A stretch of DNA of 64,000 nt from Cyanobacteriota bacterium (GCA_046052125.1 JBJOMY010000003.1:32001-96000); one strand, 5' to 3'. Numbered from the stretch's first letter, positions 15,906 to 50,225 are shown. Notes: generated by a model from the letters alone, not told the origin. Numbers and translations are program-made.

Positions 15906-15918
15906 GCGCTGGAATGGA

Positions 15919-29796: not shown

Positions 29797-31418
29797 TGGC
29801 TGGGCTGTTGCTGGATCCAGCCGCTGACCGCTGGGCCGACTGGGGCCTGCTGGATGGTCCTGATTCAGACCGCCAGCCGAACGGCCCCCAGGCCCACCAG
29901 GCCTTCCGTGATTTCATCGTGGCCGCTTATCCCGGCTACGCCTTCCATAACTGGGCCGAGCGCCTGATCGCCCTGCTGCAGCGCGTGGCCGATGGCGAGC
30001 TCAACCGCCTGATCGTCTGCTGCCCACCCAGGCTGGGCAAATCGCTACTGGTCTCCAAGCTCTTCCCGGCCTACTGGGTGAGCCGCTACCCCACGCGCTT
30101 CTGCGCGATCGCCTCCTATTCGGCGGAGCTGGCCTATGCCCATAGCCGTGAGGCGCGGCACTACTACCGCGCCGTCGGTCACCCCCTCTCGAAGGACTCC
30201 ACCGCCGTTGGCAACTGGCTGACGCCCGAACGGGGCGGCTGCATCGCTGCTGGTGTGCGCGGGCCCTTCACCGGCAAGGGCTACGCGCTGGGGATCATCG
30301 ATGACCCCTACAAGGGTCCAGAAGACGCCAACTCCGCCGGGCAACGCCAGAAGCTGATCGAGTGGTTTCAGTCTGTCTGGCTCACCCGCGCTGAACCAGG
30401 GGTGAACGGCAGTGCTGGAGCCGCCCAGGTGGTGGTGCTGACCCGCTGGCACCAGGACGACCTGATCGGCTGGCTGCTGGAGCAGGAATGCGGTGATGCC
30501 CCGCAGCAGTGGCAGGTGCTGAATCTGCCGGCGATTGCTGAACCGCCCCAGCTACAGATCAAGTTCCCGGCCACCTGCACCATCGAGCCGGACTGGCGCC
30601 AGCCCGGTGAGCCGCTCTGCCCAGAGCGTTTCCCGCTGGCGGAGCTCGAGCAGATCCGCATTCGCGCCGGCAGTTACTGGTGGAACGCGCTGTACCAGCA
30701 GCGCCCCTCACCGGCAGAGGGCCTGCTGTTCCAACGCGCTTGGATCCGCTCCACAGCGGGCACCCCTGCTCCAGACGGCCGGGCGGCGCAACGGTCCTTT
30801 GCGGCGGTGGTGCTCAGTTGTGATCTGAGTTTCAAGGGGGGAGCGGAGAACGACTACTGCGGCTTCTGCCTGCTCGGCCTGCTGCCTGATCGGGAGGCCC
30901 GCCACCCGGTGGCGCAGGCCAGGGCAAGGGGTGAGCAGCTTCACCCCAGTGCCGCCCGGGTGCGCTCACCGGCCGAACCGCAGGCAGGCGTTGTCCACAG
31001 GATTGAGGTGATCTGGAGCCAGCACCACCGCCTCGACCTGCCGGGGGTGGTCAACTTCCTCGGCCAAACCCTGGCGTCGCTGGGTCAAGGCCAAAGCCCT
31101 GATGCCGTGCTGATCGAGGACGCCGCCAATGGTCCGGCCGTCTGCCAGTTGCTGCAACGCCAGATTCCTGGCCTGATTGCTGTGCGACCCACCGGCAGCA
31201 AGGTGAGCCGCGCCCATGCCGTGGCTCCGTTGCTTGAGGCCGGCCAGCTGGCCTTTCGCAGCGGCAACGAGGCCCTGGTCAGCGAGCTGCTGGGTTTTCC
31301 AAATGCAGCCCATGACGACCTTGTGGATGCCTTCTGCCAGGGCGTGATCTGGCTGCAGAGCCAGCACTGGCGCAGCCAGGGCAAGGCCACGCCACGGCCA
31401 TTGCTGTTTTCCCGCTGA
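29796..31418 (+). CDS. terL: terminase large subunit
   Basis: PPRLGKS, TGKG, IIDDPYK, TRWHQDDL, ALYQQRP, SCDLSFK, IEDAANG, HDDLVDA. Confidence 0.93.
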   Translation: MAGLLLDPAADRWADWGLLDGPDSDRQPNGPQAHQAFRDFIVAAYPGYAFHNWAERLIALLQRVADGELNRLIVCCPPRLGKSLLVSKLFPAYWVSRYPTRFCAIASYSAELAYAHSREARHYYRAVGHPLSKDSTAVGNWLTPERGGCIAAGVRGPFTGKGYALGIIDDPYKGPEDANSAGQRQKLIEWFQSVWLTRAEPGVNGSAGAAQVVVLTRWHQDDLIGWLLEQECGDAPQQWQVLNLPAIAEPPQLQIKFPATCTIEPDWRQPGEPLCPERFPLAELEQIRIRAGSYWWNALYQQRPSPAEGLLFQRAWIRSTAGTPAPDGRAAQRSFAAVVLSCDLSFKGGAENDYCGFCLLGLLPDREARHPVAQARARGEQLHPSAARVRSPAEPQAGVVHRIEVIWSQHHRLDLPGVVNFLGQTLASLGQGQSPDAVLIEDAANGPAVCQLLQRQIPGLIAVRPTGSKVSRAHAVAPLLEAGQLAFRSGNEALVSELLGFPNAAHDDLVDAFCQGVIWLQSQHWRSQGKATPRPLLFSR

Positions 31419-31436: not shown

Positions 31437-31970
31437 TTGATGAGCACCCCACTACACGCCCGCCGCCCCAAGCCCCAGCAGGCCACTGCTCGCGTGACGA
31501 CAACAGGCCGAGCACGCGGGCCATTGCGTTCACCCCATGCCACTGCTGATGCCTTGGTGGTGGAGCACCTGCCCTTTGCCGCGAAGGTGGCGGCCAATTA
31601 CGCACGCCGCACTGGTCATCCCAAGGAAGATCTGGAGCAGCTGGCCGCGATCGGGCTGATCAAAGCCTCACGTCGCTACGACATTCACCGCCCGGGCCGC
31701 AGTCCAAACCACTTCATTGCCTACGCCAGGCCGTTCGTGAACGGCGAGATCACCCATTACCTGCGTGACAAGGGGTTCTTGATTTCCGTACCGGGCCGCT
31801 GGCGGGAGCTGCATGTGCGGGGACAAAAACTTCTCAGAGAAGGGGTTGAATCCCATGAAATCCCGCAACGGCTGGGGCTCTCGCCTGATCGCTGGGCTGA
31901 GATCCTTCAGGCCTGTTGTGTGCAGGTAGTGGCGATGGGGACTCGACAAGTGGAGGAGTCATTGGGGTGA
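31437..31970 (+). CDS. truncated SigF-like sigma factor (sigma2+sigma3, no sigma4)
   Basis: EHLPFA..EDLEQLAAIGLIKASRRYD..YARPFVNGEITHYLRD..VPGRWREL; ends without a region 4 HTH. Confidence 0.8.
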   Translation: MMSTPLHARRPKPQQATARVTTTGRARGPLRSPHATADALVVEHLPFAAKVAANYARRTGHPKEDLEQLAAIGLIKASRRYDIHRPGRSPNHFIAYARPFVNGEITHYLRDKGFLISVPGRWRELHVRGQKLLREGVESHEIPQRLGLSPDRWAEILQACCVQVVAMGTRQVEESLG

Positions 31971-32058
31971 TTATGATTTTCAGTAACTACCCAGAACAGA
32001 ATCGAGACGAGTTCTACGCAGAGATGCGCCCCATACGCTCATTCTCTGCTTCTAAATA

Positions 32059-33804
32059 TTAGGCATTAGCCTGTGATTGGTTGATGCCTTTCGATTTTAG
32101 CTTCTGAGTTGAGATTGCCTGCTCCAGGAGCGCCTTTAGCTCAGTGTGCATTGGTACCGATGGGCTTGAAATCCGCTTTAACCCCTTTAACTTAGCCGCA
32201 TCTGCCGTTCCTACATATCTGTTCTTAGCCGCCTCTTCAACTTTCGTCAAAAGCATTTTACCTTTAATGGTCGCGGCACAACTTCCGCCAAGATCTCTCC
32301 AGCGCTTGCTTGGGACGCCGACCGCTCCTTTGCTCAATCCACCAACAGCGGATTGGTACGCCGTATTGAAATCCTTCTCAGCTGCATCAGCATCGATGAG
32401 TGCAACTGCTTCGGCAAGCAAAGCAGAAGCATCCTCGCGATCAATATCAAATACATTTTCCAAATGCTGTATTGTGCAGAATCCCGCCTCTATGTCTGAT
32501 CCTGCCGGCATCCAAAAAGGAATGTTATGTACATCGTACTCCATTTTTTTGATTAATGCGTCTCTATCCGCATCAGACAAGAAGTCTCGGTCCCTGTGAA
32601 CCGCAATCGCGATGCCGAGCTCCGCTCTAGTCTTCGATAGGGCGAGGCCACGTGGCAAAGAGCCCGAGCCAAATGCTGGCCACAGCAGTACCTTCCGTGC
32701 TAGTTCGGGCCACTGAGCAAGGATGTTCTTCATGTATTGGAGGTTCCCATCTTCTGTGACGAGAAGTAGGTCCTTGTCAAGGGCTCCCCATCCCATTCGC
32801 TGTCTTACCTGATCCTCTCTTTCACTTCGGAGGGCGCCATCGCTTATCCACAGCACGTGAGAGGTGGCGCTAGAAGCCCGTACTAAGCTTGGAGAGTGCG
32901 TTGCAAGCATGAACTGAGTTTCCGGAAACGCGCTCGCAGCATCTTCAATAGCCGAGATCAGCCTCTCTTGAGTCCCGGGATGAAGGTGAGAGTCAGGTTC
33001 GTCAATAAGTAGGAGCCTCGGTCTGAAGTGAAGCAAGTAGGCAAAAATCTGAACTACCTGTAAAAAGCCAGTGCCGGCCATCTCCAGCGATCTCCACTGA
33101 AGGTCCAGCTTCTTACCAGATTCAATCATGTCATTAGTGAGGAACTTTGCGTCAATATCTACGTCCCTTAGGCGGTCGAACTTAACCCAAAAGCGCACGC
33201 CTGGAAACACCTTGCCAACCCATCTATTTAGATCAGATAATTCCTCATGTTTCTCGATGCTCTCATGTCCGGTCGCTGTGATTGCCAAACCAAGCAAGAT
33301 GTGACGAAGCACAGATCCGCCCTCACCTGAGGCAGCTCGCCGGTGAAGTACGGGGGTGGCTAGCAGCGACTCCGCTTCCGAGAGACCAGCTAACCCAGGG
33401 ATATACGCAGTCATCTGCGAGGTGGCAGTGACTGTGCTTGCGAGGGCTCCACTAACAATCGCCTTTATTCCTGCATCGTTGCGAGTTGAGTGCATATTTA
33501 TTTCTAACTGGTCAGCGCCAGATTCCAGTATCACGCGCACTTTTGGGGAGGCGGCAGCGCTATTGAGGCGAACCTTGTGAGCAAGATGCAAGAAGTCTCG
33601 ACTTGGCGCGTAATCCATACGCTCCAGAGTTACTCGATCCGCCCCGTCCTTCAAAGCCGCGCAACGCACAGCCCAATGAATTGCCCGAAGAATCGATGAC
33701 TTACCGGATCCGTTTTCGCCGACGAGAATAGTGACCGGCCCCAAGGGGATTCGCACCTCTCCATTAATTCGCATGAAGTTAGCGACAGTCACTGAGTCAA
33801 ACAT
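32059..33804 (-). CDS. ABC-type ATPase with C-terminal TOPRIM-like domain (OLD-like nuclease)
   Basis: GENGSGKS, AGTG, LLIDEPDSHLHP, ATHSP; C-terminal VTED..HRDRD..DIE; visibly lower GC. Confidence 0.8.
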   Translation of the reverse strand: MFDSVTVANFMRINGEVRIPLGPVTILVGENGSGKSSILRAIHWAVRCAALKDGADRVTLERMDYAPSRDFLHLAHKVRLNSAAASPKVRVILESGADQLEINMHSTRNDAGIKAIVSGALASTVTATSQMTAYIPGLAGLSEAESLLATPVLHRRAASGEGGSVLRHILLGLAITATGHESIEKHEELSDLNRWVGKVFPGVRFWVKFDRLRDVDIDAKFLTNDMIESGKKLDLQWRSLEMAGTGFLQVVQIFAYLLHFRPRLLLIDEPDSHLHPGTQERLISAIEDAASAFPETQFMLATHSPSLVRASSATSHVLWISDGALRSEREDQVRQRMGWGALDKDLLLVTEDGNLQYMKNILAQWPELARKVLLWPAFGSGSLPRGLALSKTRAELGIAIAVHRDRDFLSDADRDALIKKMEYDVHNIPFWMPAGSDIEAGFCTIQHLENVFDIDREDASALLAEAVALIDADAAEKDFNTAYQSAVGGLSKGAVGVPSKRWRDLGGSCAATIKGKMLLTKVEEAAKNRYVGTADAAKLKGLKRISSPSVPMHTELKALLEQAISTQKLKSKGINQSQANA

Positions 33805-34072
33805 GTCTTGCGAGCATCCTTGGTCTCAATTTGCACGCATGGAAACTGTTGTATTTCATCTGACAAGAAGATGGCGTACGTTCACGCTTTGGCGACCAAC
33901 CCAGTCTTAAACAACTCAGAAAGCCATGCTGGCGGCATGAGGGTCTGGACAGTGATCATTTCGCTCAGGGTTCCATGGGCATCGGATCGCGCTAGCAGTG
34001 CCTCCTCGGGAAGCTTCCACAAACCGTAGGCGTCATCGACGGATCCGAGAACACCGCCCTGCCACAGGTTGA

Positions 34073-35503
34073 TTGCCGCGCAGGCAAAAGCAGTTAGCGC
34101 AGCTGATCCCCGTGCCACCCGCATCCGTCGAAAATCCACTCCCCTGGCCACTCCACCCCACCCTGGCCGCACTGCTCCCTCGCCTGGATCTGATCCAGGA
34201 CTGCTGGGACCTCCTCGCTGGCCGCAAGGAGCTCTATCTCCCCCGGGGTGAACGGGAGCCAGAGAGCGCCTACCGCCGGCGGCTGGAGGCGGCCCTGCCC
34301 TCGGGGTTCTTCCGTGATGCCCTGCGCACCTTCGCGGGGATGCTGGCCTCCAGCCACTGGCGTGAGCTGCCGGCCTCGCTGCAGGCGGTAATCAGTGATG
34401 TGGATGGACGCGGTACCGACCTGGGCGTGTTCCTCGAGCGCGCCGACGTGCTGGTACTCCGTGATGGGGCAGCGCTGATCGGCGTGCTGCCGCCTGAGCA
34501 CCTCTGGCCCAGTGAGGGCGACCGCCAGCAGGCTCTGCGCCGTGGTGATCGCCTCTCCCTGCCGCGCCTTGCTCTGCTGGAGCGCCGCGACGTCCTGAAC
34601 TGGCACCTGCCTGGCCCCCAGTCCTTGCCTGACGCGGTCAGCTTCCGGCTGCCCAACCCCAAGGCCCAGGACGAGCCCCTGGACCCGGATCGACCTCAGC
34701 ATCCATGGCTCTACGGCTCCGTTGCCCTTGATGGCGAGGGCATGAGCATCGAGACCATCGAGCTGGTGGCGGACCCGCAGTCCCCATCAGGGTGGCGACC
34801 GCAACGCACGGGATTGCAGCACTACCGGGGCATCAGCCAGCTGCCGTTGATTTGGTACGCCAGTGATGGCGCTGCCTTTGGCGAGGGCGACCTACCGCAC
34901 CTGGGCCTGGCGCATCAGTACCTCAACCACTTCCGCTGCCAGAGCGACTACCAGGAGCTGCTGTATCGAACCGCGTTGCCGGTGGGTGTGCGTACAGGGG
35001 TCGTCGGCCCCATGGGCAGTGGCACTAGTGAGCCGGTGGTGCTTGGCCCGAACAGCGTGATCGATCTGCCCGACGGGGCCAGCTTCCAGTTCGTGGAAAT
35101 CCAGGCCCGCTCCCTGGCTGAGCACCGCGCTTGGCTGGAATCCCTCGACCAGGGCATGCGTCGTGACGCCCTGATCCCATCCGGCGCCCAAGGGGCTCCA
35201 CGCACCGCTACCGAGATCTCTCTGGCGGCATCCCAGGCCTATGCGCTGCTGCAGAGCCAGGCGATTCAGAAGGCCTCCATGTTTTCGTCGTTGCTGGCTC
35301 ATTGGTGCGCAATCACCGGTGAACCAGTTCCCGTGCAGCAGGGTCCGGCGTTGCTGGTGGAAATCAGCCCGCTGGCCCCCGCGCCCAAACCGCAACCCAC
35401 CGTGGCTGAAATGCTGCAGCTGCATGAGCGCGGCATCGTGAGTGAGCAGGCTCTGCGGCAATGGCTGGGGGATCTGGCCGGTGTGGCACCGGCCTCGGCT
35501 TAA
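34073..35503 (+). CDS. portal protein (DUF4055-like)
   Basis: YLPRGEREPESAYRRRL, DVDGRGTDL, LAHQYLNHF..SDY..LYRTALP, RTATE; start may be GTG 34112. Confidence 0.8.
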   Translation: MPRRQKQLAQLIPVPPASVENPLPWPLHPTLAALLPRLDLIQDCWDLLAGRKELYLPRGEREPESAYRRRLEAALPSGFFRDALRTFAGMLASSHWRELPASLQAVISDVDGRGTDLGVFLERADVLVLRDGAALIGVLPPEHLWPSEGDRQQALRRGDRLSLPRLALLERRDVLNWHLPGPQSLPDAVSFRLPNPKAQDEPLDPDRPQHPWLYGSVALDGEGMSIETIELVADPQSPSGWRPQRTGLQHYRGISQLPLIWYASDGAAFGEGDLPHLGLAHQYLNHFRCQSDYQELLYRTALPVGVRTGVVGPMGSGTSEPVVLGPNSVIDLPDGASFQFVEIQARSLAEHRAWLESLDQGMRRDALIPSGAQGAPRTATEISLAASQAYALLQSQAIQKASMFSSLLAHWCAITGEPVPVQQGPALLVEISPLAPAPKPQPTVAEMLQLHERGIVSEQALRQWLGDLAGVAPASA

Positions 35504-36366
35504 GCCTGCTGCGCCCGCTTCTCAGGGAAAGCTGCGGTTGGGCACCAGATCGCTGCACTGGCGTCGCCCAGCGCCCAGGTCCGGCCCTGGAGGTGCTCGA
35601 TCGCAACCCAGGCACAGACCAGGGCATCGAGACAGTCCTCCAGCGGCTTGAGCGCAGAGAGAGATTGGACCTCGGTGGACTGGGGCAAGGGCAGGTTGAT
35701 GTCCTGGATCTGCTGAGCAAGCCCATCACGAATCCGCCCGAACTCCTCCAGCAACCGGCCGATCCGCTCGTTCACAGACAGCTGCTCGTTTCGCCAGTAC
35801 TGCAGCGAGCGGCTGACCTTGTACGGCACTCGGTACTTGCTCTCTAACAAGGCCAGCAGGGCGACATGGGGGTACACCTCGATTAGCCCGCCGGGACCGG
35901 GTTCTGCAGCCACCGTCTGCAGGCCATAGCCGCAGACCTCCAAGTCTTGGCGAATGCTGTCGGCGATGGCGCCTGGCCGCTGCAGTGTTGGGCTGTGCAC
36001 AGCGCAGCCCCGGTTGCCAAAGATCCGCGAGACCGCGCGGTCTGCCTGCCGGCGATGACCGATTGGCTCTTTGGAGAGCGGCATATCGAATGCGATCAAA
36101 TCGATGCGACCATCCGACAGCCGTTCAGCTGCACGCAGCAGGGCCGACATCTGGGGCTTGCTGCCCTGAGCTCGTGCTGACCAGTCGACAGCAATGCCAT
36201 CGGCCAGTGCCATGAAGCTGGCATAGCTGGGTGCAAGAGCGACACACCTCCAGCTCTCGCCTTGGCGTCGCACCAGCGCGATGCCACTGGGTTGATGGGC
36301 CGTCCAGGCCGCATCAATCCCCAGCACCAGCTCTCCGGCAACAGGAGTTGGTCTTGGGCTCGTCAC
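35500..36366 (-). CDS. DUF429 RNase H-like nuclease
   Basis: LGIDAAW, IAFDMPL, LIEVYPH, DCLDALVCAW; GTG start inferred. Confidence 0.85.
   Translation of the reverse strand: MTSPRPTPVAGELVLGIDAAWTAHQPSGIALVRRQGESWRCVALAPSYASFMALADGIAVDWSARAQGSKPQMSALLRAAERLSDGRIDLIAFDMPLSKEPIGHRRQADRAVSRIFGNRGCAVHSPTLQRPGAIADSIRQDLEVCGYGLQTVAAEPGPGGLIEVYPHVALLALLESKYRVPYKVSRSLQYWRNEQLSVNERIGRLLEEFGRIRDGLAQQIQDINLPLPQSTEVQSLSALKPLEDCLDALVCAWVAIEHLQGRTWALGDASAAIWCPTAAFPEKRAQQA
36336..36344 (+). promoter_or_regulatory. candidate late promoter CGGCAACAG
   Basis: 26 nt before GTG 36371; overlaps the 5' end of the antisense DUF429 gene. Confidence 0.4.
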
Positions 36367-36370
36367 TGCT

Positions 36371-36883
36371 GTGCCTGCATCACCAACCCCCGCCGCAATC
36401 TGGCAACCCGGCGACCAGGAGGCCATCCGCCAGTGCCTGGCGCTGCCCGCCACCGTTCCCTGCCTGGATGCCATCGGTCGAGCAATGGCGGATCTGCTGC
36501 GCCAGCACCCGGCCGGGGTGTTGAGCGCCCGAGCGCTTCTGGATGCGGTGGCCCTGATTGATCAGCAGCTGCTGGCCGGCGGCTGCGAGCAGGAGCAGCC
36601 GATTCAGAAGCGCAGCCACTCGGGACCGATCGCCGGCTCGGTGGCCGCAGCTGGAGATGCGCCCCTGCAAAAAGCAGACGTGATCGCCTACGACACAGCG
36701 CTGCTGCGCGAAGAAAGCGAGACCACTTACGCCAGCCCCAGTTCGCCCGCGATGGCCCTGCTGCGCCAGCGGCGCCGCTACGCCGAGCAGCTGCTGTTGC
36801 TCCTGCCTGCGCTCAACAGCTGGATGCAGTTCACCGCCGAGGCCGCAGGGCTGCTGGGAACCACGCCGATGCTGCGGGGTTGA
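36371..36883 (+). CDS. hypothetical virion protein (head-closure/adaptor candidate)
   Basis: Helical protein between portal and scaffold; position-based. Confidence 0.55.
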   Translation: MPASPTPAAIWQPGDQEAIRQCLALPATVPCLDAIGRAMADLLRQHPAGVLSARALLDAVALIDQQLLAGGCEQEQPIQKRSHSGPIAGSVAAAGDAPLQKADVIAYDTALLREESETTYASPSSPAMALLRQRRRYAEQLLLLLPALNSWMQFTAEAAGLLGTTPMLRG

Positions 36884-36886
36884 GCG

Positions 36887-37453
36887 ATGACCACAAGCCC
36901 CAGACGGTTCACCAGCGGCCAACATCCGCGCGCAGCCGGGTCTTGGCCCGCCACGCCATTGCAGTCGTTTGCCAATGCACGCCTGCTTCTTGCGGAGAAC
37001 GCCATCCCAGGGGACACCACCTCAGCGGTGGTGGCGTCGCATGTGCTCGAGTGCTTCTTGAGCCGGCAGCGCTACATCTCGGCCAAGGAGAACGGACCTG
37101 GGGTCGACACCGGCGACTTCACCTACAGCGGCACTATCTGCCGGGCTACCCGCCTGCCGCCTCACCCGGGCGCCATCTGGCTGAGCAGCACCTTGAGCTG
37201 GCAGCAGAACGGCCGCCGCGTTGCCAGCGGTGCCAGCACCGTGGTGGCCCCCTGCGAGGGGCTGATCTGGCTGGGCAATCTCAGCCTGCTCAACCCTTCG
37301 GGCGCAGCTGATGTGGATCCCTACGCCCAGCACACGGCCTTCGTGGTGCTGGAGTTTGGCGCCGACTACGGCTCTGGGGGCATCGGCGCCCTGGTGCAGC
37401 CGTTGATTGGTGAGCGGGTGTTCGGGACGCTCAAGCCGAATCGACTCATCTGA
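36887..37453 (+). CDS. hypothetical virion protein (beta-rich, stopper-like candidate)
   Basis: Co-oriented 3 nt after the previous gene; position-based. Confidence 0.55.
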   Translation: MTTSPRRFTSGQHPRAAGSWPATPLQSFANARLLLAENAIPGDTTSAVVASHVLECFLSRQRYISAKENGPGVDTGDFTYSGTICRATRLPPHPGAIWLSSTLSWQQNGRRVASGASTVVAPCEGLIWLGNLSLLNPSGAADVDPYAQHTAFVVLEFGADYGSGGIGALVQPLIGERVFGTLKPNRLI

Positions 37454-37462
37454 TTTCTGCCT

Positions 37463-37471
37463 CGGCAACAG
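37463..37471 (+). promoter_or_regulatory. candidate late promoter CGGCAACAG
   Basis: Intergenic, upstream of the scaffold gene. Confidence 0.5.
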
Positions 37472-37523
37472 GGGATGGCAGCGCCGCGATGGGCTGCCGA
37501 TCCACTGACAGCCGAGACGGGTC

Positions 37524-38384
37524 ATGGCCACTGCTTCCGCAACCCCCAGCACCAGCACCACCCGCAGCGGAGGTGATGGCCACGAACTCCTGGATCTCCA
37601 GGGCTCTGAGACCAGCGAGCAGGACAGCACTCAGGGCGACCACAGCACTGGCCCGGATCCTGCACCCACCGCCAATGAACCCACCCAGGGATCTGGAGGT
37701 GATGGCCTCAGCGAGGCCCTCAAGGCCGAGCGCCGCCGCAGTAACAACCTCGAAAAAGAACTGCGCGGGCTGCGGCAACAGCTGACTCGTTTCTCGGAGA
37801 TCAACCCCGAGGAGTACGCCCGTCTGCAGGAGGCCGAACGCCAAAAGCAGCACCTCGAGCAGCAGCTGGAGCTGCGGGAACGCCAGATGGAGGAGGCCGC
37901 CGCCAAGCGGGTGGCAGCCGTCAGTGCAGAGCGCGACGCCGCCCATGAGCGGGTGCAGGAGCTACGCAAGGAGCGGCTGCTGGAGCGGGCTTTCTCAGAA
38001 GCGGAAGGGCGCACCGGCGGCGATGGGCGCGGCACCTTCTTTCAGGTGTTTCGCTCGATGCTCTGGGACTGCTTCCGGCTGGGCAGCAGCAAGGACGGCG
38101 GCGATGTGCTCGAACCCCTCGACGGCCATGGCCAGCCACTGCTCGGTGACGACGGCCGGCCGATGACCACAGCCGACTACCTCGATCAGCTGCGCATCCA
38201 CCCCGTGTATGGCTTTCTGTTCCAGCAGCGCGGCGCCATGGGTACCGGTGCCATGCCCGCGGGCACTACAGCCGGCAGCCTCGGCGCCAGCGGTTTTGGG
38301 GAGGTGATCAATCCACAGGCGATGAGCGCCAGCGAGCTCTACCGGGCTGGCTTTGTCAGCAATGGCCGCATGGCCCGGCACTGA
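37524..38384 (+). CDS. capsid scaffolding protein
   Basis: Disordered acidic N-terminus, ALKAER coiled coil, INPEEY, FLF..G.G linker, terminal MSASELYRAG helix. Confidence 0.7.
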   Translation: MATASATPSTSTTRSGGDGHELLDLQGSETSEQDSTQGDHSTGPDPAPTANEPTQGSGGDGLSEALKAERRRSNNLEKELRGLRQQLTRFSEINPEEYARLQEAERQKQHLEQQLELRERQMEEAAAKRVAAVSAERDAAHERVQELRKERLLERAFSEAEGRTGGDGRGTFFQVFRSMLWDCFRLGSSKDGGDVLEPLDGHGQPLLGDDGRPMTTADYLDQLRIHPVYGFLFQQRGAMGTGAMPAGTTAGSLGASGFGEVINPQAMSASELYRAGFVSNGRMARH

Positions 38385-38442
38385 ACGCTTCTGCCAGCCG
38401 TTCCTACGGTGACATCACCAAGGGGGATTCCCCAGACAGCAA

Positions 38443-39330
38443 GTGATGGCCAGGCAAGAACAGCGGTTGGCGGCCAACGTTCCTGGGCCCTTCTATGTCG
38501 ACGGCAGCTGCATCGACTGCGGCACCTGCTGGCAGTTCGATCCGCTGCACTACGCCCCGACCGGCAGCAGTTCGCGGGTGCAGCGCCAACCGGATGGCGC
38601 TGCCGAACTGCGGCAGGCACTGCTGGCCCTGCAGGCCTGCCCGGTGGCTGCGATCGGCACCAGCCGTGAACTGCTGGCTCAGATGCCCATGGATGGCTTT
38701 CCGGTTCTGATCACGCGCCATGCGGCTGGGGACGTCTACTACTGCGGTTGGGCATCACGGCGCAGCTTTGGTGCCAGCAGCTGGTTGGTGGTGCGCCCTG
38801 ACGGCAACGTGCTGATCGATGTGCCGCGCTGGAGTGCACCCCTCGCCCGGCGCATCAAGGATTTGGGCGGTCTGCGGCGCATCGTGCTGACGCACCGCGA
38901 TGACGTGGCCGATCAGGCGCACTGGTCCCGGGCATTCGGAGCCGAACGCTGGATCCACGCGGCCGACGCCGATGCCGCCCCCCAGGCCGAGCATCAGCTG
39001 AGCGGCAGCGATGCCCTGCACCTGGATGTGGACCTGCAGTTGATCCCCACTCCTGGTCACACAGCTGGCTCGATGGTGGCGGTGCTGGGAGGGCGCGAAC
39101 AGGTGCTGTTCAGCGGCGATCACCTTTGGTGGAACCCGGCGCATCAAGCGGTCGTGGCTTCCAAGGCCTACTGCTGGTGGAACTGGAGTGCGCAGCTGCG
39201 CTCCGTCGAGCGGCTGCTGGATCTCGATGTGGCCTGGCTGCTGCCTGGTCATGGCCATCAGCATCAGTTCACGCCCGGCCAGTGGCGAGTTGCCTTGGAG
39301 CAGACGCTGGCGTACGCCACGGCGCCGTGA
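38443..39330 (+). CDS. ferredoxin + metallo-beta-lactamase fold hydrolase
   Basis: CIDCGTC..ACPV, LTHRDDVAD, TPGHTAGS, FSGDH, LPGHG. Confidence 0.9.
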   Translation: MMARQEQRLAANVPGPFYVDGSCIDCGTCWQFDPLHYAPTGSSSRVQRQPDGAAELRQALLALQACPVAAIGTSRELLAQMPMDGFPVLITRHAAGDVYYCGWASRRSFGASSWLVVRPDGNVLIDVPRWSAPLARRIKDLGGLRRIVLTHRDDVADQAHWSRAFGAERWIHAADADAAPQAEHQLSGSDALHLDVDLQLIPTPGHTAGSMVAVLGGREQVLFSGDHLWWNPAHQAVVASKAYCWWNWSAQLRSVERLLDLDVAWLLPGHGHQHQFTPGQWRVALEQTLAYATAP

Positions 39331-39377
39331 AGAGCAAGCAAAAAGGCCCGGCAAGGCCGGGCCAGGAGGCCGCCGCC

Positions 39378-39593
39378 TCAGAGCACCGAGACGGTGCCGA
39401 GGCGCTTGGCGGCCAGCTTGCGGGCCAGCTGATGGGCCAGCTCAGCTGGAATGAAACGCGGCTTCTTCACGGGCTTGCCGCGGCGGCCATAGAAGACCGT
39501 GACGCGCTCGGCAGCGGCGACCTTGAGCCCAGCCGGATAGCTGTGCAGCACCAGCTGACGGATCGGACAGGCCAGAGGAGCAGAGGAGGCCAT
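39378..39593 (-). CDS. small basic hypothetical protein
   Basis: MASSAPLACPIRQLVLHSYP..VFYGRRGKPVKKPRFIP. Confidence 0.65.
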   Translation of the reverse strand: MASSAPLACPIRQLVLHSYPAGLKVAAAERVTVFYGRRGKPVKKPRFIPAELAHQLARKLAAKRLGTVSVL

Positions 39594-39623
39594 GGGACGG
39601 AGGCGAGGAACACCTGTCCCATC

Positions 39624-39720
39624 GCCCCGGACGACACGCCCTGGCAAGGGTCGGCGTAGCCGACTCGCGTCAGCCCTTGCCAGGGTGGGGCGAGCAGGGC
39701 GCAGCCCTGCGCTCCGGGGC
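39624..39720. other. multi-stem foldback, GCAAGG/CCTTGC core family
   Basis: CCCTGGCAAGGG (39639-50) / CCCTTGCCAGGG (39674-85); inner GTCGGC-GTA-GCCGAC; outer GCCCCGGA/TCCGGGGC. Confidence 0.6.
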
Positions 39721-39805
39721 AGTGCTGGTGATTCCTCGCCGACCCCATGGCCGGACGGCTGCCGGGGCCTGGTTGAGACAGCAGCCGCAACACCGGCTGT
39801 AGAAC

Positions 39806-40486
39806 GTGGCGATGACGGCTCCTGAGAACGCCCACAGCCAGCGCTACACCGATGCCCTGGGCTGGGCGGCTGAGCTGCACCGCGGTCAGCGTCGCAAGGG
39901 CAAGCCGGTTCCTTACATCGCCCACCTGATCGCCGTGAGTGCTCTGGTGTGGGAGGACGGCGGCAGCGAAAACCAGGCGATTGCGGCTCTGCTGCACGAC
40001 GCCATCGAGGATGCGGGTCAGAGCCAGGCCTCGATTGCCGCACGCTTTGGCGAGGAGGTGGCCGCGATCGTGGTGGACTGCACCGACACAGCTGGCCCCG
40101 TGGAGCCCGGCGCCGAAAAGGAACCCTGGCTGCTGCGCAAGACCCGCTATCTCGCCTCGCTGGAGGAGAAGCCGCAGACCTCTTTGCTGGTGACGGCAGC
40201 CGACAAGGCCCACAACGCCCGCGACCTGGTGCTCGATGCCCGCAGCCACCCTGGTGGCTGGGAGCGTTTCACGGCGGGGCTGGAGGGCAGCGCCTGGTAT
40301 CTGCTGCGCGTTCAGCAGGCCCTGAGCCATCGCTTGCCGGAGAGTCGCTCCACCGCCCTACTGGCAGAAGCTGTGCAAGAACTGCTGAGCAGCGAGCCCT
40401 ACCGGCGCCTGGTGCCCCATGGCATCGCTCCGGCGGTGTGGGCCGCCAGCTACCTGGAGCGGCCAGAGGCCCATCCCCAGCCTTGA
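39806..40486 (+). CDS. HD-domain small alarmone hydrolase (Mesh1/SpoT-hydrolase-like)
   Basis: H.GQRRK..PYIAHLIAV, AALLHDAIED, ADKAHNAR. Confidence 0.85.
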   Translation: MAMTAPENAHSQRYTDALGWAAELHRGQRRKGKPVPYIAHLIAVSALVWEDGGSENQAIAALLHDAIEDAGQSQASIAARFGEEVAAIVVDCTDTAGPVEPGAEKEPWLLRKTRYLASLEEKPQTSLLVTAADKAHNARDLVLDARSHPGGWERFTAGLEGSAWYLLRVQQALSHRLPESRSTALLAEAVQELLSSEPYRRLVPHGIAPAVWAASYLERPEAHPQP

Positions 40487-40525
40487 ACGTCCTGCGGCCG
40501 TTCTCAGCGCTGCGGCCAGACTGGT

Positions 40526-40783
40526 TCAGTTGTCTGGATCGCGGCGTCGGCCGCTGACGATGCTGCCGCCACCGAGCAAGGCCAGGCTGGTTCCAACCGC
40601 CGCCTCAAAGGTCTGCTGCAGGTTCTCGGCGTAGCTGCTGCACACCGGGCCAAGCCGCCGCTGCAGACCAAGCCAGAAGCAACCGCCCAGGCCAGCGGCA
40701 TAGAGCGCGAACTGGGCGATGAAGACCCCCGCCACCGCCCGCAACAGAAAGCGCTCGCGATCAAATCCATCGCCACCAGCCAT
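40526..40783 (-). CDS. small two-TM protein, holin candidate
   Basis: Two hydrophobic segments and a basic C-tail; directly downstream of the peptidase. Confidence 0.5.
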   Translation of the reverse strand: MAGGDGFDRERFLLRAVAGVFIAQFALYAAGLGGCFWLGLQRRLGPVCSSYAENLQQTFEAAVGTSLALLGGGSIVSGRRRDPDN

Positions 40784-40800
40784 GGCTGTGCTCCTTGGGG

Positions 40801-41547
40801 TCAGGGTTGGCAGGTGAGCAGCCAGCCGGTGCCGGGGCCATCGGCCTGCCAGCGCGGCAGCCAGTTCTTCCAGCTGTAGTGCTGCCCTGCTCCATTGGTG
40901 TTGGCGGTGTAGCCGCCGTGGACCAGGTCGGCCTCACCGTTGGGGTCGTTGTGGATGGCGACTGTCTCGGTGAAACCGATCACCACGCTCCAGTGACCGC
41001 CGCCGCTGGGTGCAGAAGCGGGGCCGTGGTGCAGCCAGCCCACTGCGACCGGTCGCCCCAGGTTGATCTGTTCCTCCAGCGTTGCGCGCTGGCCGTTGGT
41101 GGCGAAGTGGGCAGTCAGCCCCAGGGATCGCAACGCCGCCAACTGAGCTTCTGCCGAGGTGGTGTCGCCATAGCGGGCACGGATGACGTTGTAGGCGTCA
41201 TCGCCACTGACCTTGCCCCAGAAGCGGGCGAGCATGGCGCAGCTGCTGGAGAAGCACTCGCGGTAGCCAGTGCCTGAAGCGTTGTCGTTCTGGTTCTCCC
41301 AGGCCACCGGCAGCGGATTGGCATGGGCCGGGGCTGGGGGAGCTGATGAAAAGGTCTGCCGCCATGGGGCGGCCTCGGTGAGGACCTGTGGATCGGCCGC
41401 CATGACCGCCAGCCGCAATTGCTCGATGCCGGCGAGCTGCTGAGGCTGACCCTTCCAGTGGTCCCAGAACTGACGCCAGCGCTCAGCGCTGAACGGCGCC
41501 TGGTCACCAGGCGCGACGGCAGCCGGAGTGGGAGAGCTTGGAGACAT
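40801..41547 (-). CDS. C39-like cysteine peptidase (probable endolysin)
   Basis: Q.DN..RECFSSSCAM, GHWSVVIG, HNDPNG (Cys-His-Asp). Confidence 0.8.
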   Translation of the reverse strand: MSPSSPTPAAVAPGDQAPFSAERWRQFWDHWKGQPQQLAGIEQLRLAVMAADPQVLTEAAPWRQTFSSAPPAPAHANPLPVAWENQNDNASGTGYRECFSSSCAMLARFWGKVSGDDAYNVIRARYGDTTSAEAQLAALRSLGLTAHFATNGQRATLEEQINLGRPVAVGWLHHGPASAPSGGGHWSVVIGFTETVAIHNDPNGEADLVHGGYTANTNGAGQHYSWKNWLPRWQADGPGTGWLLTCQP

Positions 41548-41567
41548 GGCAGCAGGGCAGTCCTCTG

Positions 41568-41576
41568 CTGTTGCCG
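41568..41576 (-). promoter_or_regulatory. candidate late promoter CGGCAACAG
   Basis: 20 nt upstream of ATG 41547 on the minus strand. Confidence 0.5.
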
Positions 41577-41681
41577 CAGCATCCATCCACTGATCAAGGC
41601 CTGCCTGCGTGTCACCTGTCGGGCTGCTTGAGACCGCCGCGCCCGTGATACCTGCGGTTCAGATTGCTTAGCCTGGGGGCC

Positions 41682-41900
41682 ATGACCAACCCCCAGCTCA
41701 CCGAGAACCTGCTCGCCGTGATCCGCAGCCTGCCGGCTGACGATCGCCGCTGGCTGCTCAGGCAGCTGGAGCAGGACAACAGTGACCTGAGTCACGGTGC
41801 CCTGGCTGAGATGGCGATGGCCGGGGGAGCCTTTGACGACCTGGCCGCTGAACCTGAGCTCTACAGCTTCTCCGACGGAGAAGCGATCGTTGCCGGCTGA
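41682..41900 (+). CDS. antitoxin candidate
   Basis: Small, acidic C-terminus (FDDLAAEPELYS); TGATG-coupled to the toxin. Confidence 0.7.
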   Translation: MTNPQLTENLLAVIRSLPADDRRWLLRQLEQDNSDLSHGALAEMAMAGGAFDDLAAEPELYSFSDGEAIVAG

Positions 41901-42247
41901 TGCTCAGCCGCTACGACATCGTGCTTGTCGCCTTCCCTTTCACGGATGGGCCGGCGGCCAAGCCTCGCCCGGCTTTGGTGATCACCACCAGTGATCGCCA
42001 TGGGGATGTGCTGCTGGCCTTCATCAGCTCCAACATCAGCGGCCCAACGGCCAGCGATGAGCTCGACATCCCAGCCGACCATCCAGGCTTCTCAGACACC
42101 GGCCTGAAGGTGAGCTCAAGGCTGCGGCTCAGCCGCATGACAACGCTGGCCATGCCACTCGTGAAACGGCGCATCGGACGACTGCCGCTGGCCTTGCAGA
42201 CGAACTGCCAGCAGGTGCTGCAGCGGGTGATCGGCGCCCAAGGCTGA
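41900..42247 (+). CDS. PemK/MazF family toxin
   Basis: DIVLVAFPFTD..KPRPALVI, FISS, TGLKVSS.LRL. Confidence 0.88.
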   Translation: MLSRYDIVLVAFPFTDGPAAKPRPALVITTSDRHGDVLLAFISSNISGPTASDELDIPADHPGFSDTGLKVSSRLRLSRMTTLAMPLVKRRIGRLPLALQTNCQQVLQRVIGAQG

Positions 42248-42278
42248 ACGCTCTCCTGTGGGGCAGTTCGTGTCGCCT

Positions 42279-42287
42279 CGGCAATAG
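42279..42287 (+). promoter_or_regulatory. candidate late promoter CGGCAATAG
   Basis: Intergenic, upstream of the capsid gene. Confidence 0.5.
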
Positions 42288-42323
42288 CCCCTGACATCAA
42301 TGGGGCCCGGCCCCACCTGTGCC

Positions 42324-43253
42324 ATGGGCCTCACCCTGATCGAGGCAGCCAAATACGAGCACCGGCTTGAGCACCTGGCTGTGCTCAAGACCTTCTCGGA
42401 GGGCGAACTGCTCGCCCGGCTGCCGTTCATGAACATCGCCGGCAGCGGCCTCTTCTATTCCGCCGAGCAGGAGCTGCCCTCGGTGGGCTTCCGCGCCGTG
42501 AACGAGGGCTACACCCAGAGCTACGGCGTGGTGGATCAGCGCGCAGAAGCGGTGCACCTCTTTGGTGGTGATGTGGATGTGGACCGCTCGATCGTGGACC
42601 TGATGGGCCCTGAGGCCCGCGCCAGCCAGATCGAGATGAAGGTGCGCTCGATGCGCCTCACCCTGGAGGCGACCGTGATCAACGGCGACACCGCCAGCAA
42701 CCCCCGCGCCTTTGACGGCTTGAGCAAGCGCCTGCCGCCCGGCAACCCGATGGCGATCAACAACGCCTCCGGTGCCATTCCCGGTGCGCCGCTGAATTTC
42801 GATCGGCTTGATGAGCTGATCGATTCAGTGAATGCCTACGGCGGCAGCAAGGTGCTGGTGATGAGCAAGGCGATGCGCCGCCAGCTCAATGCTCTCGCCC
42901 GCGCCTCCATCGGCGGTGGTGTGTACCAGACCAGCACCAACTCCTACGGGATGACGGTGCACCGCTACCAGGACTGCGACATCCTCACCGTCGACCGCGA
43001 TGCCCAGGGCGTCGAGGTGATGGGCTACGACGAGGCGGGCGGCACCAGCTCGATCTACTGCTGCACCTTTGGCGATCAGGGCGTGACCGGCCTGCAGGGC
43101 CCGTTCCAGGGCCGCTATGGGATCTCGGTGCGGGACCTGGGCGAGGTGCCCGATGCCCCGGTGTTCCGCACCCGCGTGGATTGGTACGTGGGCTTTGCCG
43201 TGCTGCAGCCCCGCGCCGCCGGCCGTCTGTTCAACATCACCCCCGCTGCCTGA
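42324..43253 (+). CDS. major capsid protein (HK97 fold)
   Basis: LTLIEAAK, LPF, LPSVGFRAVNEG, DVDVDR, INGD..FDGL, RTRVDWYVG..AAGRL.NI. Confidence 0.85.
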   Translation: MGLTLIEAAKYEHRLEHLAVLKTFSEGELLARLPFMNIAGSGLFYSAEQELPSVGFRAVNEGYTQSYGVVDQRAEAVHLFGGDVDVDRSIVDLMGPEARASQIEMKVRSMRLTLEATVINGDTASNPRAFDGLSKRLPPGNPMAINNASGAIPGAPLNFDRLDELIDSVNAYGGSKVLVMSKAMRRQLNALARASIGGGVYQTSTNSYGMTVHRYQDCDILTVDRDAQGVEVMGYDEAGGTSSIYCCTFGDQGVTGLQGPFQGRYGISVRDLGEVPDAPVFRTRVDWYVGFAVLQPRAAGRLFNITPAA

Positions 43254-43256
43254 GCC

Positions 43257-43694
43257 ATGGCCCTCACAAACGGCAACCCCTTGATCGATGCGGAGACCAC
43301 CCTGGTGGGCTGGACCAACCGCAGCGCCATCCGCAACACAGAGCACACCTTCCTCTCCGGAGAGGAGGTGCTGCTCAACACCAAGCTCGATGCGGCCTCC
43401 CGCTTCTCGCTGGTGGCCTCCCATCCCGGCGCGCCTGCCGCGGTGGAGGTGGAACTGCTGCTGGCACCGGTACTGCGCGATGGCACCACCGGCAGCTGGA
43501 TCAGTGCCGTCCGCGTTGCCCTACCGGCAGAAGGCGGCCGGGTGGAGGCATTTCTTTCCGGCCATGACATCCAGATCACACCGGCGGATCTGCCCAACCT
43601 CGATCTGCCGGCGGTGTGTTTCGCCAAGGCGCTCGTGACCCCGACCACCCCGGCGGGCATGCACGCGGGCCTGACGGCCACGATTGCGGCCTGA
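43257..43694 (+). CDS. capsid cement/decoration protein candidate
   Basis: 145-aa beta-rich protein directly after the MCP. Confidence 0.5.
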   Translation: MALTNGNPLIDAETTLVGWTNRSAIRNTEHTFLSGEEVLLNTKLDAASRFSLVASHPGAPAAVEVELLLAPVLRDGTTGSWISAVRVALPAEGGRVEAFLSGHDIQITPADLPNLDLPAVCFAKALVTPTTPAGMHAGLTATIAA

Positions 43695-43698
43695 GCCC

Positions 43699-44121
43699 AT
43701 GGCCCGCAAACGCTCCACCAGCCCTGCAGAGGAACCGGCAGCCGAGGAGCAGCCGGCGCAGCCCACGCCGATCGAGCTTCCACCCGCCGCCGCAACCCGC
43801 CACGACCTGGGGGATCCCACCGTGCCGGCCGGCCTGGTGCGCATCAGCAACGGCAGCGGTGAGCGCTTCATCTGGCCGGTGCACCTGGGCGGCTGGCAAC
43901 AACAGGGCTGGACCCTGATCGCTGCCGCCACCGGCCTTCAGATCACGCCGGCACCAACAGCGCCTGCAGCAGTGATCGAGGTGCCGCTGGCCGCAGCAAC
44001 GCCAGAGGCGAGCACAGTCGAACCAATCCCAGACGACGCCGAGTCCGAGTTGGCAGCCACCTGGGAGCTGGAAAGCAGCGCCACAAGCGAGGCGCTGCTG
44101 CTCGACGACCCGCTGCTTTGA
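43699..44121 (+). CDS. hypothetical virion-associated protein
   Basis: Disordered flanks around LVRISNGSGERFIWPVHLGGWQQQGW. Confidence 0.6.
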   Translation: MARKRSTSPAEEPAAEEQPAQPTPIELPPAAATRHDLGDPTVPAGLVRISNGSGERFIWPVHLGGWQQQGWTLIAAATGLQITPAPTAPAAVIEVPLAAATPEASTVEPIPDDAESELAATWELESSATSEALLLDDPLL

Positions 44122-44124
44122 GGG

Positions 44125-44913
44125 GTGATCGCTTCCGTGCGCTCCTTTCTTCCCTCCCAAGCGAGCAGCACGGCAGCCAGCCCGCAGCTGATTCGCGTGC
44201 TGCCTCCTCTGGGCTGCCCGGGCGAGAGCGTGTGGGTGCCTCCCGTGGAGGTGAGCCGCTGGGAGCAGCAGGGCTACCGCCGCGCTCCCATCCCCGCCGC
44301 ACCGCTGGAGTTGGCCTGGCTGCCGGATGCGCCTGTGCCCCTGGACCCAGCTGGCAGCACCGCGGTGTTGCTGCTGCTCCAGGCCCGGCCACCGTTGCCA
44401 ACGGCGCTGTCGCTGGATTGGGGTGACGGCAGCGTTGAAACCTGGCCCTGGCCCCGCGGCGACAATGCGCCGCGGCTCCGCCATGCCTATACCTGCGCCC
44501 AGGACTGGCAGGTTTCGGCAGAACTGAGCGGCAGCGGCATCAGCGCCGAGCTGGCGGTGCATCTGCTGGGCTGCCCGATTTGGCCGCCACCGCCACCCCT
44601 GCCGCCGGGGGCGATTCAGCCGCTCATCCCCGGCAGTGGCCTGCTCGGCCAACCGTTTGATGGCCGGCGCCGCGAGCAGTGGCAGCTGCAGCGCTGGAGT
44701 GGCGGCACCAGCAGCGGCGGCGTACCAGCCAGCGATGGCTCCAGCACCCGCTTCCTGCGGGCCGATGGCCTCTGGGCCACCCCGCCGGGCAGTGGCGGTG
44801 GCACCCGCTGGTGGAGCGGCGAGGGGCCACCCGGAGTGCTCCCTGATGCCCAAGCGGGTGACTTCTATCTCGACACCCGCAGCGGTGATCTCTACCAACT
44901 GGAGCTGAGCTGA
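44125..44913 (+). CDS. PKD-like domain protein with C-terminal fibre half-motif
   Basis: LDWGDGS..HAY (PKD), TRFLRADGLWATP, WWSGEGPP..GDFYLDTRSGDLY. Confidence 0.65.
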   Translation: MIASVRSFLPSQASSTAASPQLIRVLPPLGCPGESVWVPPVEVSRWEQQGYRRAPIPAAPLELAWLPDAPVPLDPAGSTAVLLLLQARPPLPTALSLDWGDGSVETWPWPRGDNAPRLRHAYTCAQDWQVSAELSGSGISAELAVHLLGCPIWPPPPPLPPGAIQPLIPGSGLLGQPFDGRRREQWQLQRWSGGTSSGGVPASDGSSTRFLRADGLWATPPGSGGGTRWWSGEGPPGVLPDAQAGDFYLDTRSGDLYQLELS

Positions 44914-45380
44914 TGCCCTGGACCCACAGCACCAACCTCAAGGGGCCTTCGATGCTGCGGCTGGCGCGGCTACCGGCGGCGCTGAGCACCAGCTCCGGCA
45001 CCAGTTGGCTCACCTTGTTCACCACACCGCTGGCGGCGCAGCAGGTGCTCTCCTTTGCGGCGGAGCTCTACTTCTCCAGCGGCGCCAACAACACCGGCCT
45101 GGTGACCACCCTCTCTGGCCCCGCCGGGCCGCATGCGGTGATTCACAACCTGGTGACGGGTGAATCGCTCACCACCTTCCGCAACCTCACCGCCAGCAGC
45201 TACGACACGCCCCTGATCGGCACCAGCTCCGCCGGCAGTTCGGTGCTCAGGGCTCAGGTGAGCGGCACGGTGGAGAACGGCGCCAATGCCGGCAACCTCA
45301 GCCTGCGTTTTCGCTCAGAGGTGGCCGGCACCGCGGTGACAGTGCTGCGCGGCTCCTGGTGGCAAGTGCTGCAGCACTGA
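44913..45380 (+). CDS. fibre tip-like beta-sandwich protein
   Basis: N-terminal MPWTHSTNLKGP; C-terminal GNLSLRFRSEVAGTAVTVLRGS. Confidence 0.6.
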   Translation: MPWTHSTNLKGPSMLRLARLPAALSTSSGTSWLTLFTTPLAAQQVLSFAAELYFSSGANNTGLVTTLSGPAGPHAVIHNLVTGESLTTFRNLTASSYDTPLIGTSSAGSSVLRAQVSGTVENGANAGNLSLRFRSEVAGTAVTVLRGSWWQVLQH

Positions 45381-45404
45381 GCTGCGTTCACTCCAGCTCA
45401 CCAA

Positions 45405-45413
45405 CGGCAATAG
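45405..45413 (+). promoter_or_regulatory. candidate late promoter CGGCAATAG
   Basis: Intergenic, 37 nt upstream of the collagen gene ATG. Confidence 0.5.
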
Positions 45414-48352: not shown

Positions 48353-48360
48353 CGGAGGGA

Positions 48361-50035: not shown

Positions 50036-50040
50036 GGATG

Positions 50041-50192: not shown

Positions 50193-50225
50193 TTTTCCCC
50201 AATGACAGGGTCGGTGTTGGGTGGG

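Follow-up and report, generated by a model that had tools for sequence, protein, structure and literature searches.

The late box of the phage T4 sigma factor gp55 is of the TATAAATA type. gp55 itself keeps only the sigma-2 homology domain and needs both gp33 and the gp45 clamp (PMC7892883). Among bacterial sigma factors related to SigF, the promoter of Synechocystis SigF requires a −32 TAGGC as well as a −12 GGTAA (PMC2532724), and the Nostoc SigJ promoters consist mainly of an extended −10, the J-Box, with a weak −35 (PMC6495340). In the open complex of Staphylococcus aureus SigB, the upstream bases of the −10 are still duplex DNA when domains 2 and 3 read them (PMC11156646). A group 3 sigma is also carried by the cyanophage P-SS2, for which Sullivan et al. 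2009 proposed only a particular, unspecified regulon (PMC2784084). Here we analyse a stretch of 64,000 nucleotides (nt) from a Cyanobacteriota bacterium (GCA_046052125.1, JBJOMY010000003.1:32001-96000), referred to as the window, in whose coordinates positions are given. It holds most of a prophage with a region-4-less sigma factor, here called sigT, and with one short promoter word, YGGCAAYAG, before its late gene groups. SigT most likely reads this word. Overall, we consider it likely that sigT of the induced prophage would drive late units from YGGCAAYAG independently of any −35 element.

The starting point was a sequence-only reading of this stretch, according to which the gene right after terL encodes sigma regions 2-3 without region 4 and derives from SigF. 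Both claims are confirmed by Pfam, model coverage, fold and homologues, the best models and structures being those of SigF and SigB. The two genes are:

29796 to 31418, plus strand: terminase large subunit gene (terL), directly 5' of sigT (Pfam, PHROGs)
31437 to 31970, plus strand: sigT, a SigF/SigB-family sigma of 177 amino acids limited to domains 2 and 3; the exact position of its start codon is uncertain

Sigma70_r2 is the sole Pfam match of sigT. Its best NCBIfam match is the SigF model NF005644 (E 1.8e-20), of which positions 30-154 of 258 are covered, with a score of 73.6 bits against a curated full-length cut-off of 261 and no region 4. TIGR02980 is matched as well (E 1.7e-19), and the best PDB sequence match is S. 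aureus SigB (8x6g, E 7e-17). When aligned to full-length SigF proteins, sigT ends at the start of region 3.2. Its AlphaFold model (mean pLDDT 85.6) features a domain 2 with three long helices, a three-helix domain 3 and a disordered end; a Foldseek search returned sigma factors only, none of them at E ≤0.001. All distinct homologues (106/106) stop before domain 4, 58-82 amino acids past the LRD motif, and PF04542 is the only domain in the database homologues (best 120, among the matches listed). We regard the truncation as ancestral. In a class-wide search, high-scoring sigT-like matches were confined to the host family, the remaining ones scoring as ordinary SigF/J. The sigT loci come mainly from records titled Cyanobium or Synechococcus, and terL lies immediately 5' of sigT in 97/101 of them. 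Since the sigT tree, from which host SigA and one copy of sigU (a second sigma family described below) were left out, has long branches and no root, we claim no donor.

The candidate promoter sites and the late genes that they precede are:

34082 to 34090, plus strand: degenerate late-promoter word AGGCAAAAG before the portal gene, with YGGYAANRG at the orthologous position
34112 to 35503, plus strand: portal protein, GTG start (phrog_145, E 6e-33)
35456 to 35464, plus strand: CGGCAATGG inside the portal gene end; in close relatives that lack the DUF429 insertion, this is the site ahead of the 36371 gene
36336 to 36344, plus strand: CGGCAACAG before the 36371 gene, a lineage-specific replacement site; predicted +1 near 36350
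36371 to 36883 and 36887 to 37453, plus strand: two conserved genes, probably one late unit (conserved synteny)
37463 to 37471, plus strand: predicted late-promoter word CGGCAACAG before the scaffold gene; predicted +1 near 37477
37524 to 38384, plus strand: head scaffolding protein (phrog_206)
40526 to 41547, minus strand: endolysin (40801 to 41547, phrog_10051) and a putative holin (40526 to 40783), labelled by position and size
41568 to 41576, minus strand: predicted late-promoter word CGGCAACAG before the endolysin and holin-like genes (orthologous regions); predicted +1 near 41562
42279 to 42287, plus strand: predicted late-promoter word CGGCAATAG before the major capsid gene, with unrelated upstream flanks; predicted +1 near 42293
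42324 to 43253, plus strand: major capsid protein (phrog_212), followed by four conserved genes up to 45380
45405 to 45413, plus strand: predicted late-promoter word CGGCAATAG before the collagen-like fibre gene; predicted +1 near 45419
45451 to 46011, plus strand: collagen-repeat fibre protein (Pfam Collagen, PHROGs tail fibre families)

The five CGGCAAYAG sites named in the sequence-only reading all lie on the coding strand, 20-52 nt before the start codons used (26 nt at 36336, 52 at 37463, 20 at 41576, 36 at 42279 and 37 at 45405), and the weak portal site is likewise there, 21 nt before GTG 34112. Two of the five need qualification. The 41576 site is valid with the endolysin start at ATG 41547, on which relatives agree, but not with 41586. 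The 36336 site is present but lineage-specific, close relatives using CGGCAATGG at 35456 instead; it came with, or arose at, the DUF429 insertion, which is found here and in two other loci only. When viral contigs were scanned for the context of the 36336 site, none matched. For the 36371 gene, the label 'head completion' found no support in Pfam or PHROGs, where neither this gene nor the 36887 gene matched any family; the ESM Atlas gave no usable lead for them. The ATG with which the 36371 gene begins in relatives reads ATC here (36371-36400), and the start must be a GTG just 5' or a later ATG.

The enrichment test against a shuffled background, proposed with the original claim, gave nine copies of CGGCAAYAG in the window against 1.38 expected, and 0/100 shuffles reached nine. 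The genome-wide mean, 3.2 per 64 kilobases (kb), is also above the shuffle expectation, and the densest 10 kb of the whole genome is this late region, with 6 sites. Four extra exact matches (4680, 16984, 37773 and 50768) fall outside the late-leader set, the one at 37773 within the scaffold gene. One further site was considered and not counted as support, being matched in 18/59 regions in sense and 13/59 in antisense:

39674 to 39682, minus strand: uncertain site TGGCAAGGG before a conserved 71-amino-acid gene (39378 to 39593), within an inverted repeat

A GC-rich hairpin leader (39594-39700, minus strand) is conserved 5' of this small gene in all clades, with apparent compensatory changes, and a similar leader in the sigU element raises the possibility of a structured RNA.

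We counted the pattern YGGYAANRG in distinct orthologous upstream regions, with the opposite strand as control. The word precedes the portal gene in 72/86 regions (opposite strand, 3), the 36371 gene in 47/77 (2), the scaffold gene in 63/65 (2), the endolysin gene in 15/15 (2), the capsid gene in 57/58 (3) and the collagen gene in 22/22 (0); as the loci are kin, such counts overstate independence, and more weight attaches to the agreement between non-homologous genes. Before other genes the word is rare or missing: primase 0/37, nuclease 0/55, the 28896 gene 0/58, terL 1/83, terS 7/80, and, inside late units, the 43257 gene 0/51 and holin 0/12. Thus, the motif is conserved upstream of orthologues of the late units, as the original claim required, and nearly absent before replication genes.

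That claim also included the lack of a shared −35, which now extends far beyond the window. In 126 upstream flanks less than 55% alike, no position exceeds 0.09 bits among the 42 positions from 45 to 4 nt before the word, and on this ground we conclude that no −35 is conserved. No sigma-70 boxes are conserved around the word either, and cargo replaces DNA right up to its 5' edge, a case of natural mutagenesis. On the 3' side, a purine stands 6 nt after the word in 96% of sites, usually preceded by a pyrimidine, and the pyrimidine-purine step peaks at the same offset in 5/6 genes (portal 21/27, collagen 9/10). Such a step 5-6 nt past the word fits a transcription start site. Four RNA contigs, from 17 runs with the capsid region, span cargo and intergenic DNA; they gave no start sites and were not used as support. 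Taken together, the comparisons support a role of YGGCAAYAG as a one-box, −10-only late promoter. Alternatively, the word might be an operator, an activator site or an RNA signal at the head of late mRNAs. The variable distance to the start codon (20-52 nt here) and the conserved leader sequences and hairpins after some sites would suit such a role. Yet the word is strictly oriented and non-palindromic, it resembles SigB/F −10 boxes, it has a pyrimidine-purine step at a fixed distance, and it is not accompanied by conserved sigma-70 boxes. We therefore consider a non-promoter role very unlikely and retain the promoter reading.

If the word is a promoter, which sigma factor reads it? The first base proved informative. 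When it was left unconstrained, it was C in 80/82 sites of sigT clades A/A2, to which the window copy belongs; in 172 sites of clades B/C it was T 135, A 27, C 9 and G 1 times. A C-type and a T-type element reside side by side in this very genome. In SigB, R110 reads −15G and R100 reads −14G, and there is no −7T pocket (PMC11156646). The R100 equivalent is R in 106/106 sigT proteins, and the positions corresponding to SigB 110-111 follow the clades: GR in 26/26 of A/A2, AS in 43/43 of B and PT or PS in 37/37 of C. We hypothesize that residues 110-111 might explain both why the third G was lost and why the first base changed between C and T; as this amounts to about one event on the sigT tree, the residue-base pairing can be offered only as a hypothesis.

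The same data bear on whether the word could be a promoter for a host SigF/SigJ-type sigma, sigT being a vestige, decoy or competitor. The sequence-only reading had itself invoked cyanobacterial SigF: the GG-led extended −10 stood up to comparison, but Synechocystis SigF is not a −10-only system, as it needs −32 TAGGC. Indeed, GGCAA is one base from the Synechocystis −12 core GGTAA (PMC2532724), Nostoc SigJ promoters are likewise mainly extended −10 (PMC6495340), and the host has two full-length SigF-like genes. Against this, the first base differs between the two elements that share a cell, each following its own sigT, and the preceding base is G in just 2/254 sites, whereas SigB/J-type boxes begin GGG. 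Nor is there a host regulon signal, the word occurring 14 times in sense and 14 in antisense in 2362 host upstream regions, and neither the J-Box nor the element word is found in about 100 nt before host pilB. Moreover, sigT is intact and syntenic in 97/101 loci. A host reader of the word is on this evidence very improbable, and sigT stays the preferred one.

The element also encodes a second sigma factor:

47723 to 48433, minus strand: accessory sigma 'sigFull' with regions 2 and 4 (Pfam r2, r4)

Without most of region 3, sigFull is a mirror image of sigT. It is element-borne, SigF-related and present in both paralogous elements of this genome, and on these grounds it might be thought to read the word. 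However, it was found in 11/23 capsid loci with at least 7 kb downstream, although it could lie farther away in others, and in 0/7 loci of the band with 73-88% identity, in which conservation of the word persists. It also has domain 4, yet no −35 is conserved, and most of domain 3 is missing. That sigFull is the reader appears extremely unlikely.

For sigT as the reader, the following sequence of events may be envisaged. After prophage induction, sigT would be made, a SigF-derived sigma cut to domains 2 and 3, and would bind host core RNA polymerase, as its family membership suggests. YGGCAAYAG would be read as an extended −10 in the manner of SigB, with domains 2 and 3 on duplex upstream bases and one adenine flipped out (by analogy with PMC11156646). 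Without domain 4, no −35 box would be used, in line with the absence of −35 conservation, and transcription would start 6-7 nt past the word, judging by the conserved pyrimidine-purine step. No clamp tether or co-activator is evident in this clade; sister clades add a β-clamp motif.

How far does the resemblance to gp55 go? The term 'gp55-like' used in the sequence-only reading is apt for the logic, that is, no region 4 and a −10-only box; it is not apt in that sigT keeps domain 3, that no gp33 counterpart was identified and that the clade has no clamp motif. We conclude that sigT probably works like T4 gp55 but is not a member of the gp55 family, and no gp55 entry is among the 58 PDB sequences matched by sigT, the SigF/SigB models and structures being best. 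An N-terminal QLx[LI]P[LI] is present in 16/38 sigT proteins of clade B and 30/33 of clade C, and in 0/22 of clade A/A2, the window copy included. It is also present in 99/107 database homologues with an N-terminal extension, against a host background of 14/2598 proteins. QLSLPL is the tight-binding clamp motif of Hda (PMC12309361). A clade B peptide was predicted to dock on the host clamp via residues 19-27 with a score of 0.74 (best control 0.01); this mark was reached by 51/78 solved and 2/108 mismatched pairs, and the pass may reflect likeness to solved clamp-peptide complexes. In this prediction, runs agreed in at least 51% of contacts and the partner pLDDT was 46-48. The sigmas of S-CRES1 and S-CRES3 end in QGSLF, and in phage Mu an activator couples late transcription to the clamp (PMC12867686). 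Clamp coupling is therefore plausible in the sigT family, though not evident in this copy.

These observations bear on a variant, rather than a competitor, of our preferred explanation, in which sigT does read the word but cannot act alone: domain 4 would be replaced by a gp33-like co-activator, the sliding clamp or both, perhaps via one of the small conserved genes (39378-39593 or 46057-46410, for example). Its best arguments are the clamp motif of clades B/C with its predicted docking and the QGSLF ends in S-CRES1/3. For the window's clade, it faces the motif's presence in 0/22 proteins, and a pattern scan of the element's predicted proteins found two internal matches only, in terL and a cargo gene. 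In addition, no small conserved gene matched a known co-activator family in Pfam or PHROGs, a divergent analogue being possible. We view this variant as less likely than not.

The assignment of one word to each late unit would explain how these units coexist with cargo, which comprises:

32059 to 33804, minus strand: low-GC AAA/ABC ATPase gene between sigT and portal, not at this position in relatives
35500 to 36474, minus strand: DUF429 gene between portal and the 36371 gene (Pfam); true start probably 3' of 36474
38443 to 39330, 39806 to 40486 and 41664 to 42247: further cargo, not at these positions in relatives

The Pfam match of the DUF429 protein starts at residue 52. This insertion occurs in just two other loci, and one contig joins 35492 directly to 36400. 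Gaps of more than 400 nt are found before portal in 86/90, scaffold in 59/67, capsid in 48/48 and collagen in 24/24 loci, and in 0/77 and 0/51 at two internal junctions mostly or wholly without the motif. This pattern supports the earlier proposal of separate promoters where cargo inserts. With its own copy of the word, each late unit could tolerate cargo just upstream without the next unit being cut off. Such per-unit promoters may thus account for defence and metabolic cargo between the head genes of these prophages.

As for the element as a whole, its genes (primase, terminase, portal, scaffold, capsid, endolysin, collagen fibre; Pfam, PHROGs) identify it as a prophage related to P-SS2 and S-CBS2, evidently integrated at tRNA-Pro:

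15918 to 17344, plus strand: left boundary of the prophage, with a copy of the tRNA-Pro 3' end at about 15918 to 15951 and an integrase gene at 16100 to 17344

The element is about 65 kb long, its right end lying at the tRNA-Pro gene past the window end. The tRNA-Pro 3' end occurs three times (window 15918-15951; contig C3 at 14581 and 113260) and bounds two tandem elements of about 33 and 65 kb. A paralogous element with identical gene order is found on contig C1. The nearest cultured TerL matches are S-CBS2, S-CRES and P-SS2, and the best cultured capsid match is P-SS2 (45%). The capsid gene was matched in 21/151 related genomes; the prophage family with sigT is widespread in freshwater picocyanobacteria. 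Among the predicted genes scanned (window plus 19 kb beyond, short open reading frames in part), no tail tube or tape-measure gene was found, and the collagen fibre is the only tail-family match. Despite the siphovirus nature of its nearest cultured relatives, the element may make tail-less particles or borrow tails. A cargo block at 49028-61337 places an ArdC anti-restriction gene beside a complete type I restriction-modification system, a HEPN-like gene and an AAA-WCX gene, and toxin-antitoxin pairs lie at 41664-42247 and 46521-47440. In the literature covered, which stopped short of the P-SS2 supplements (promoter table, logo) and the S-CBS2 and S-CRES genome papers, neither this word nor the siphovirus word given below is described, nor is this prophage family; passages on S-LBS1, Ma-LMM01, a sponge-symbiont prophage and SynAce01 do not describe the word.

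The cultured cyanosiphoviruses appear to use the same arrangement with a different word. P-SS2, S-CBS2 and S-CRES1/3 have a SigF-like gene directly after terS-terL, and no Pfam region 4 was found in the two sigmas tested. Their word, GGHANNCTA or more loosely GG[ACT]ANN[CA]TA, stands mostly about 30 nt before structural-module genes: 25/42 of these versus 3/60 others in S-CBS2, 13/34 versus 5/79 in P-SS2, 20/33 versus 9/78 in S-CRES1, and 22/36 versus 7/86 in S-CRES3, which was held out from the word definition but is a close relative. No −35 signal was detected in 58 sites of this word. The element's own word was tried in the cultured siphoviruses and occurs there at background counts, and the siphovirus word precedes 0/77 and 0/114 genes of this genome's elements. 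As side observations, S-CBS2 gp77 (16832-17452) seems frameshifted near its end, the other frame reaching QGSLF, through a sequencing error or mutation; and GGTAGACTGG, possibly a middle promoter, stands 31-33 nt before the late sigma gene in P-SS2 (2058) and S-CBS2 (16801).

A second region-4-less SigF-like family, 'sigU', is represented in the window at 5926-6366 (plus strand) and on contig C1 at 172219 and 730282. In the tree, it clusters with the sigmas of P-SS2 and S-CBS2 (99/98). Its three elements carry replication, Rad52, Gp157 and integrase genes, with no head or tail genes found, and neither late word stands upstream of their genes. A different motif, GTAGCCT(CCCGCA), in window 1770-7640 and the C1 and C3 copies, precedes 8/116 sigU-element genes in sense, 0 in antisense and 10/2362 host genes. 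It may be the −10 box of the group-2-like sigma of the sigU element (3212-4186) or of host SigA.

Several observations weigh against sigT as the reader of a −10-only late word. The word is short, with 132 copies across the genome, and host DNA has high-scoring matches; timing, DNA state or a cofactor may therefore add specificity. A GGCAAT is found 78 nt upstream of a host pilA-like gene, and host SigF may overlap in specificity, as the host-sigma explanation would have it. The word also matches within 330 nt upstream of sigT itself in 24/103 regions, and the window's portal site is degenerate. Clade B sites of the 36371 gene break the first-base rule (19 A, 8 C, 1 T), and the C/T switch coincides with roughly a single branch in the tree of sigT, so that shared history could explain it. 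SigT has neither the finger of region 3.2 nor the flap contact made by domain 4, on account of which its unaided activity may be weak. Finally, the siphovirus word was chosen by eye from three of the four phages, with module limits set from annotation. A broader synthesis can be formulated nonetheless: the late sigma of this clade is minimal and self-sufficient (domains 2 and 3; no region 4, co-activator or clamp tether); the P-SS2-like lineage lost region 4; a host-clamp motif was gained at the C-terminus in S-CRES and at the N-terminus in clades B and C, clade A doing without one; the first promoter base is dictated by two residues where domain 3 begins; and the particle driven is apparently tail-less. 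All of this holding at once is a tentative proposition, somewhat less probable than its opposite.

If sigT does read the word, first-base specificity may partly separate the late programmes of prophages that share a cell. The words also provide a candidate target for the phage sigma whose regulon stayed unspecified in the P-SS2 paper, and predicted late promoters in cultured cyanosiphoviruses. A sigma of about 140 residues with a 9-bp promoter would probe the minimum that a sigma needs and is a candidate orthogonal expression tool for cyanobacteria.

Compared with known systems, sigT is closest in sequence to SigF/SigJ, the nearest named family by hidden Markov model (NF005644), with which it shares a GG-led extended −10. 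Host SigF and SigJ, in contrast, have domain 4. In the element word, position −12 is C, −15 is a pyrimidine instead of G, and the −7 T is missing. SigB co-reads its −10 through domains 2 and 3 with no −7T pocket, and this is the part that sigT keeps, together with the R74 and R100 equivalents, while F86 is Y in sigT; SigB, however, needs domain 4 and a −35, and in sigT R97 is H, R110 is G/A/P and the F79 position is not aromatic. P-SS2 (ORF003), S-CBS2 (gp77) and S-CRES1/3 resemble the element in terS-terL-sigma order, TerL, capsid and one-box word. Their sigmas differ in keeping a 60-100-residue C-terminal extension, with the QGSLF end in S-CRES1/3, and their word, which resembles the Nostoc J-Box GGGaAtacT (PMC6495340), in carrying a −7 T; P-SS2/S-CBS2-type phages also have tails. 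Like Mu with its MuC, clades B/C of sigT suggest a temperate phage whose late transcription is linked to the host β clamp by short motifs, but MuC is no sigma itself and acts as an activator alongside sigma-70, and the window's sigT is without such a motif. T4 offers the closest parallel in logic: a phage sigma without the −35-reading domain, one −10-like box before virion genes and no −35 conservation. Whereas gp55 consists of a strongly diverged sigma-2 homology domain and a helix-loop-helix, sigT can still be recognised as derived from SigF/SigB and has domain 3. Unlike T4, the element is temperate and about 65 kb long, and the clamp motif, confined to sister clades, would bind the host β clamp. 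What is new here, and in our view well supported by the comparisons, is a variant of the T4-type late switch apparently built from SigF. It suggests that temperate phages arrived independently at the logic of T4 late genes, starting from a SigF ancestor.

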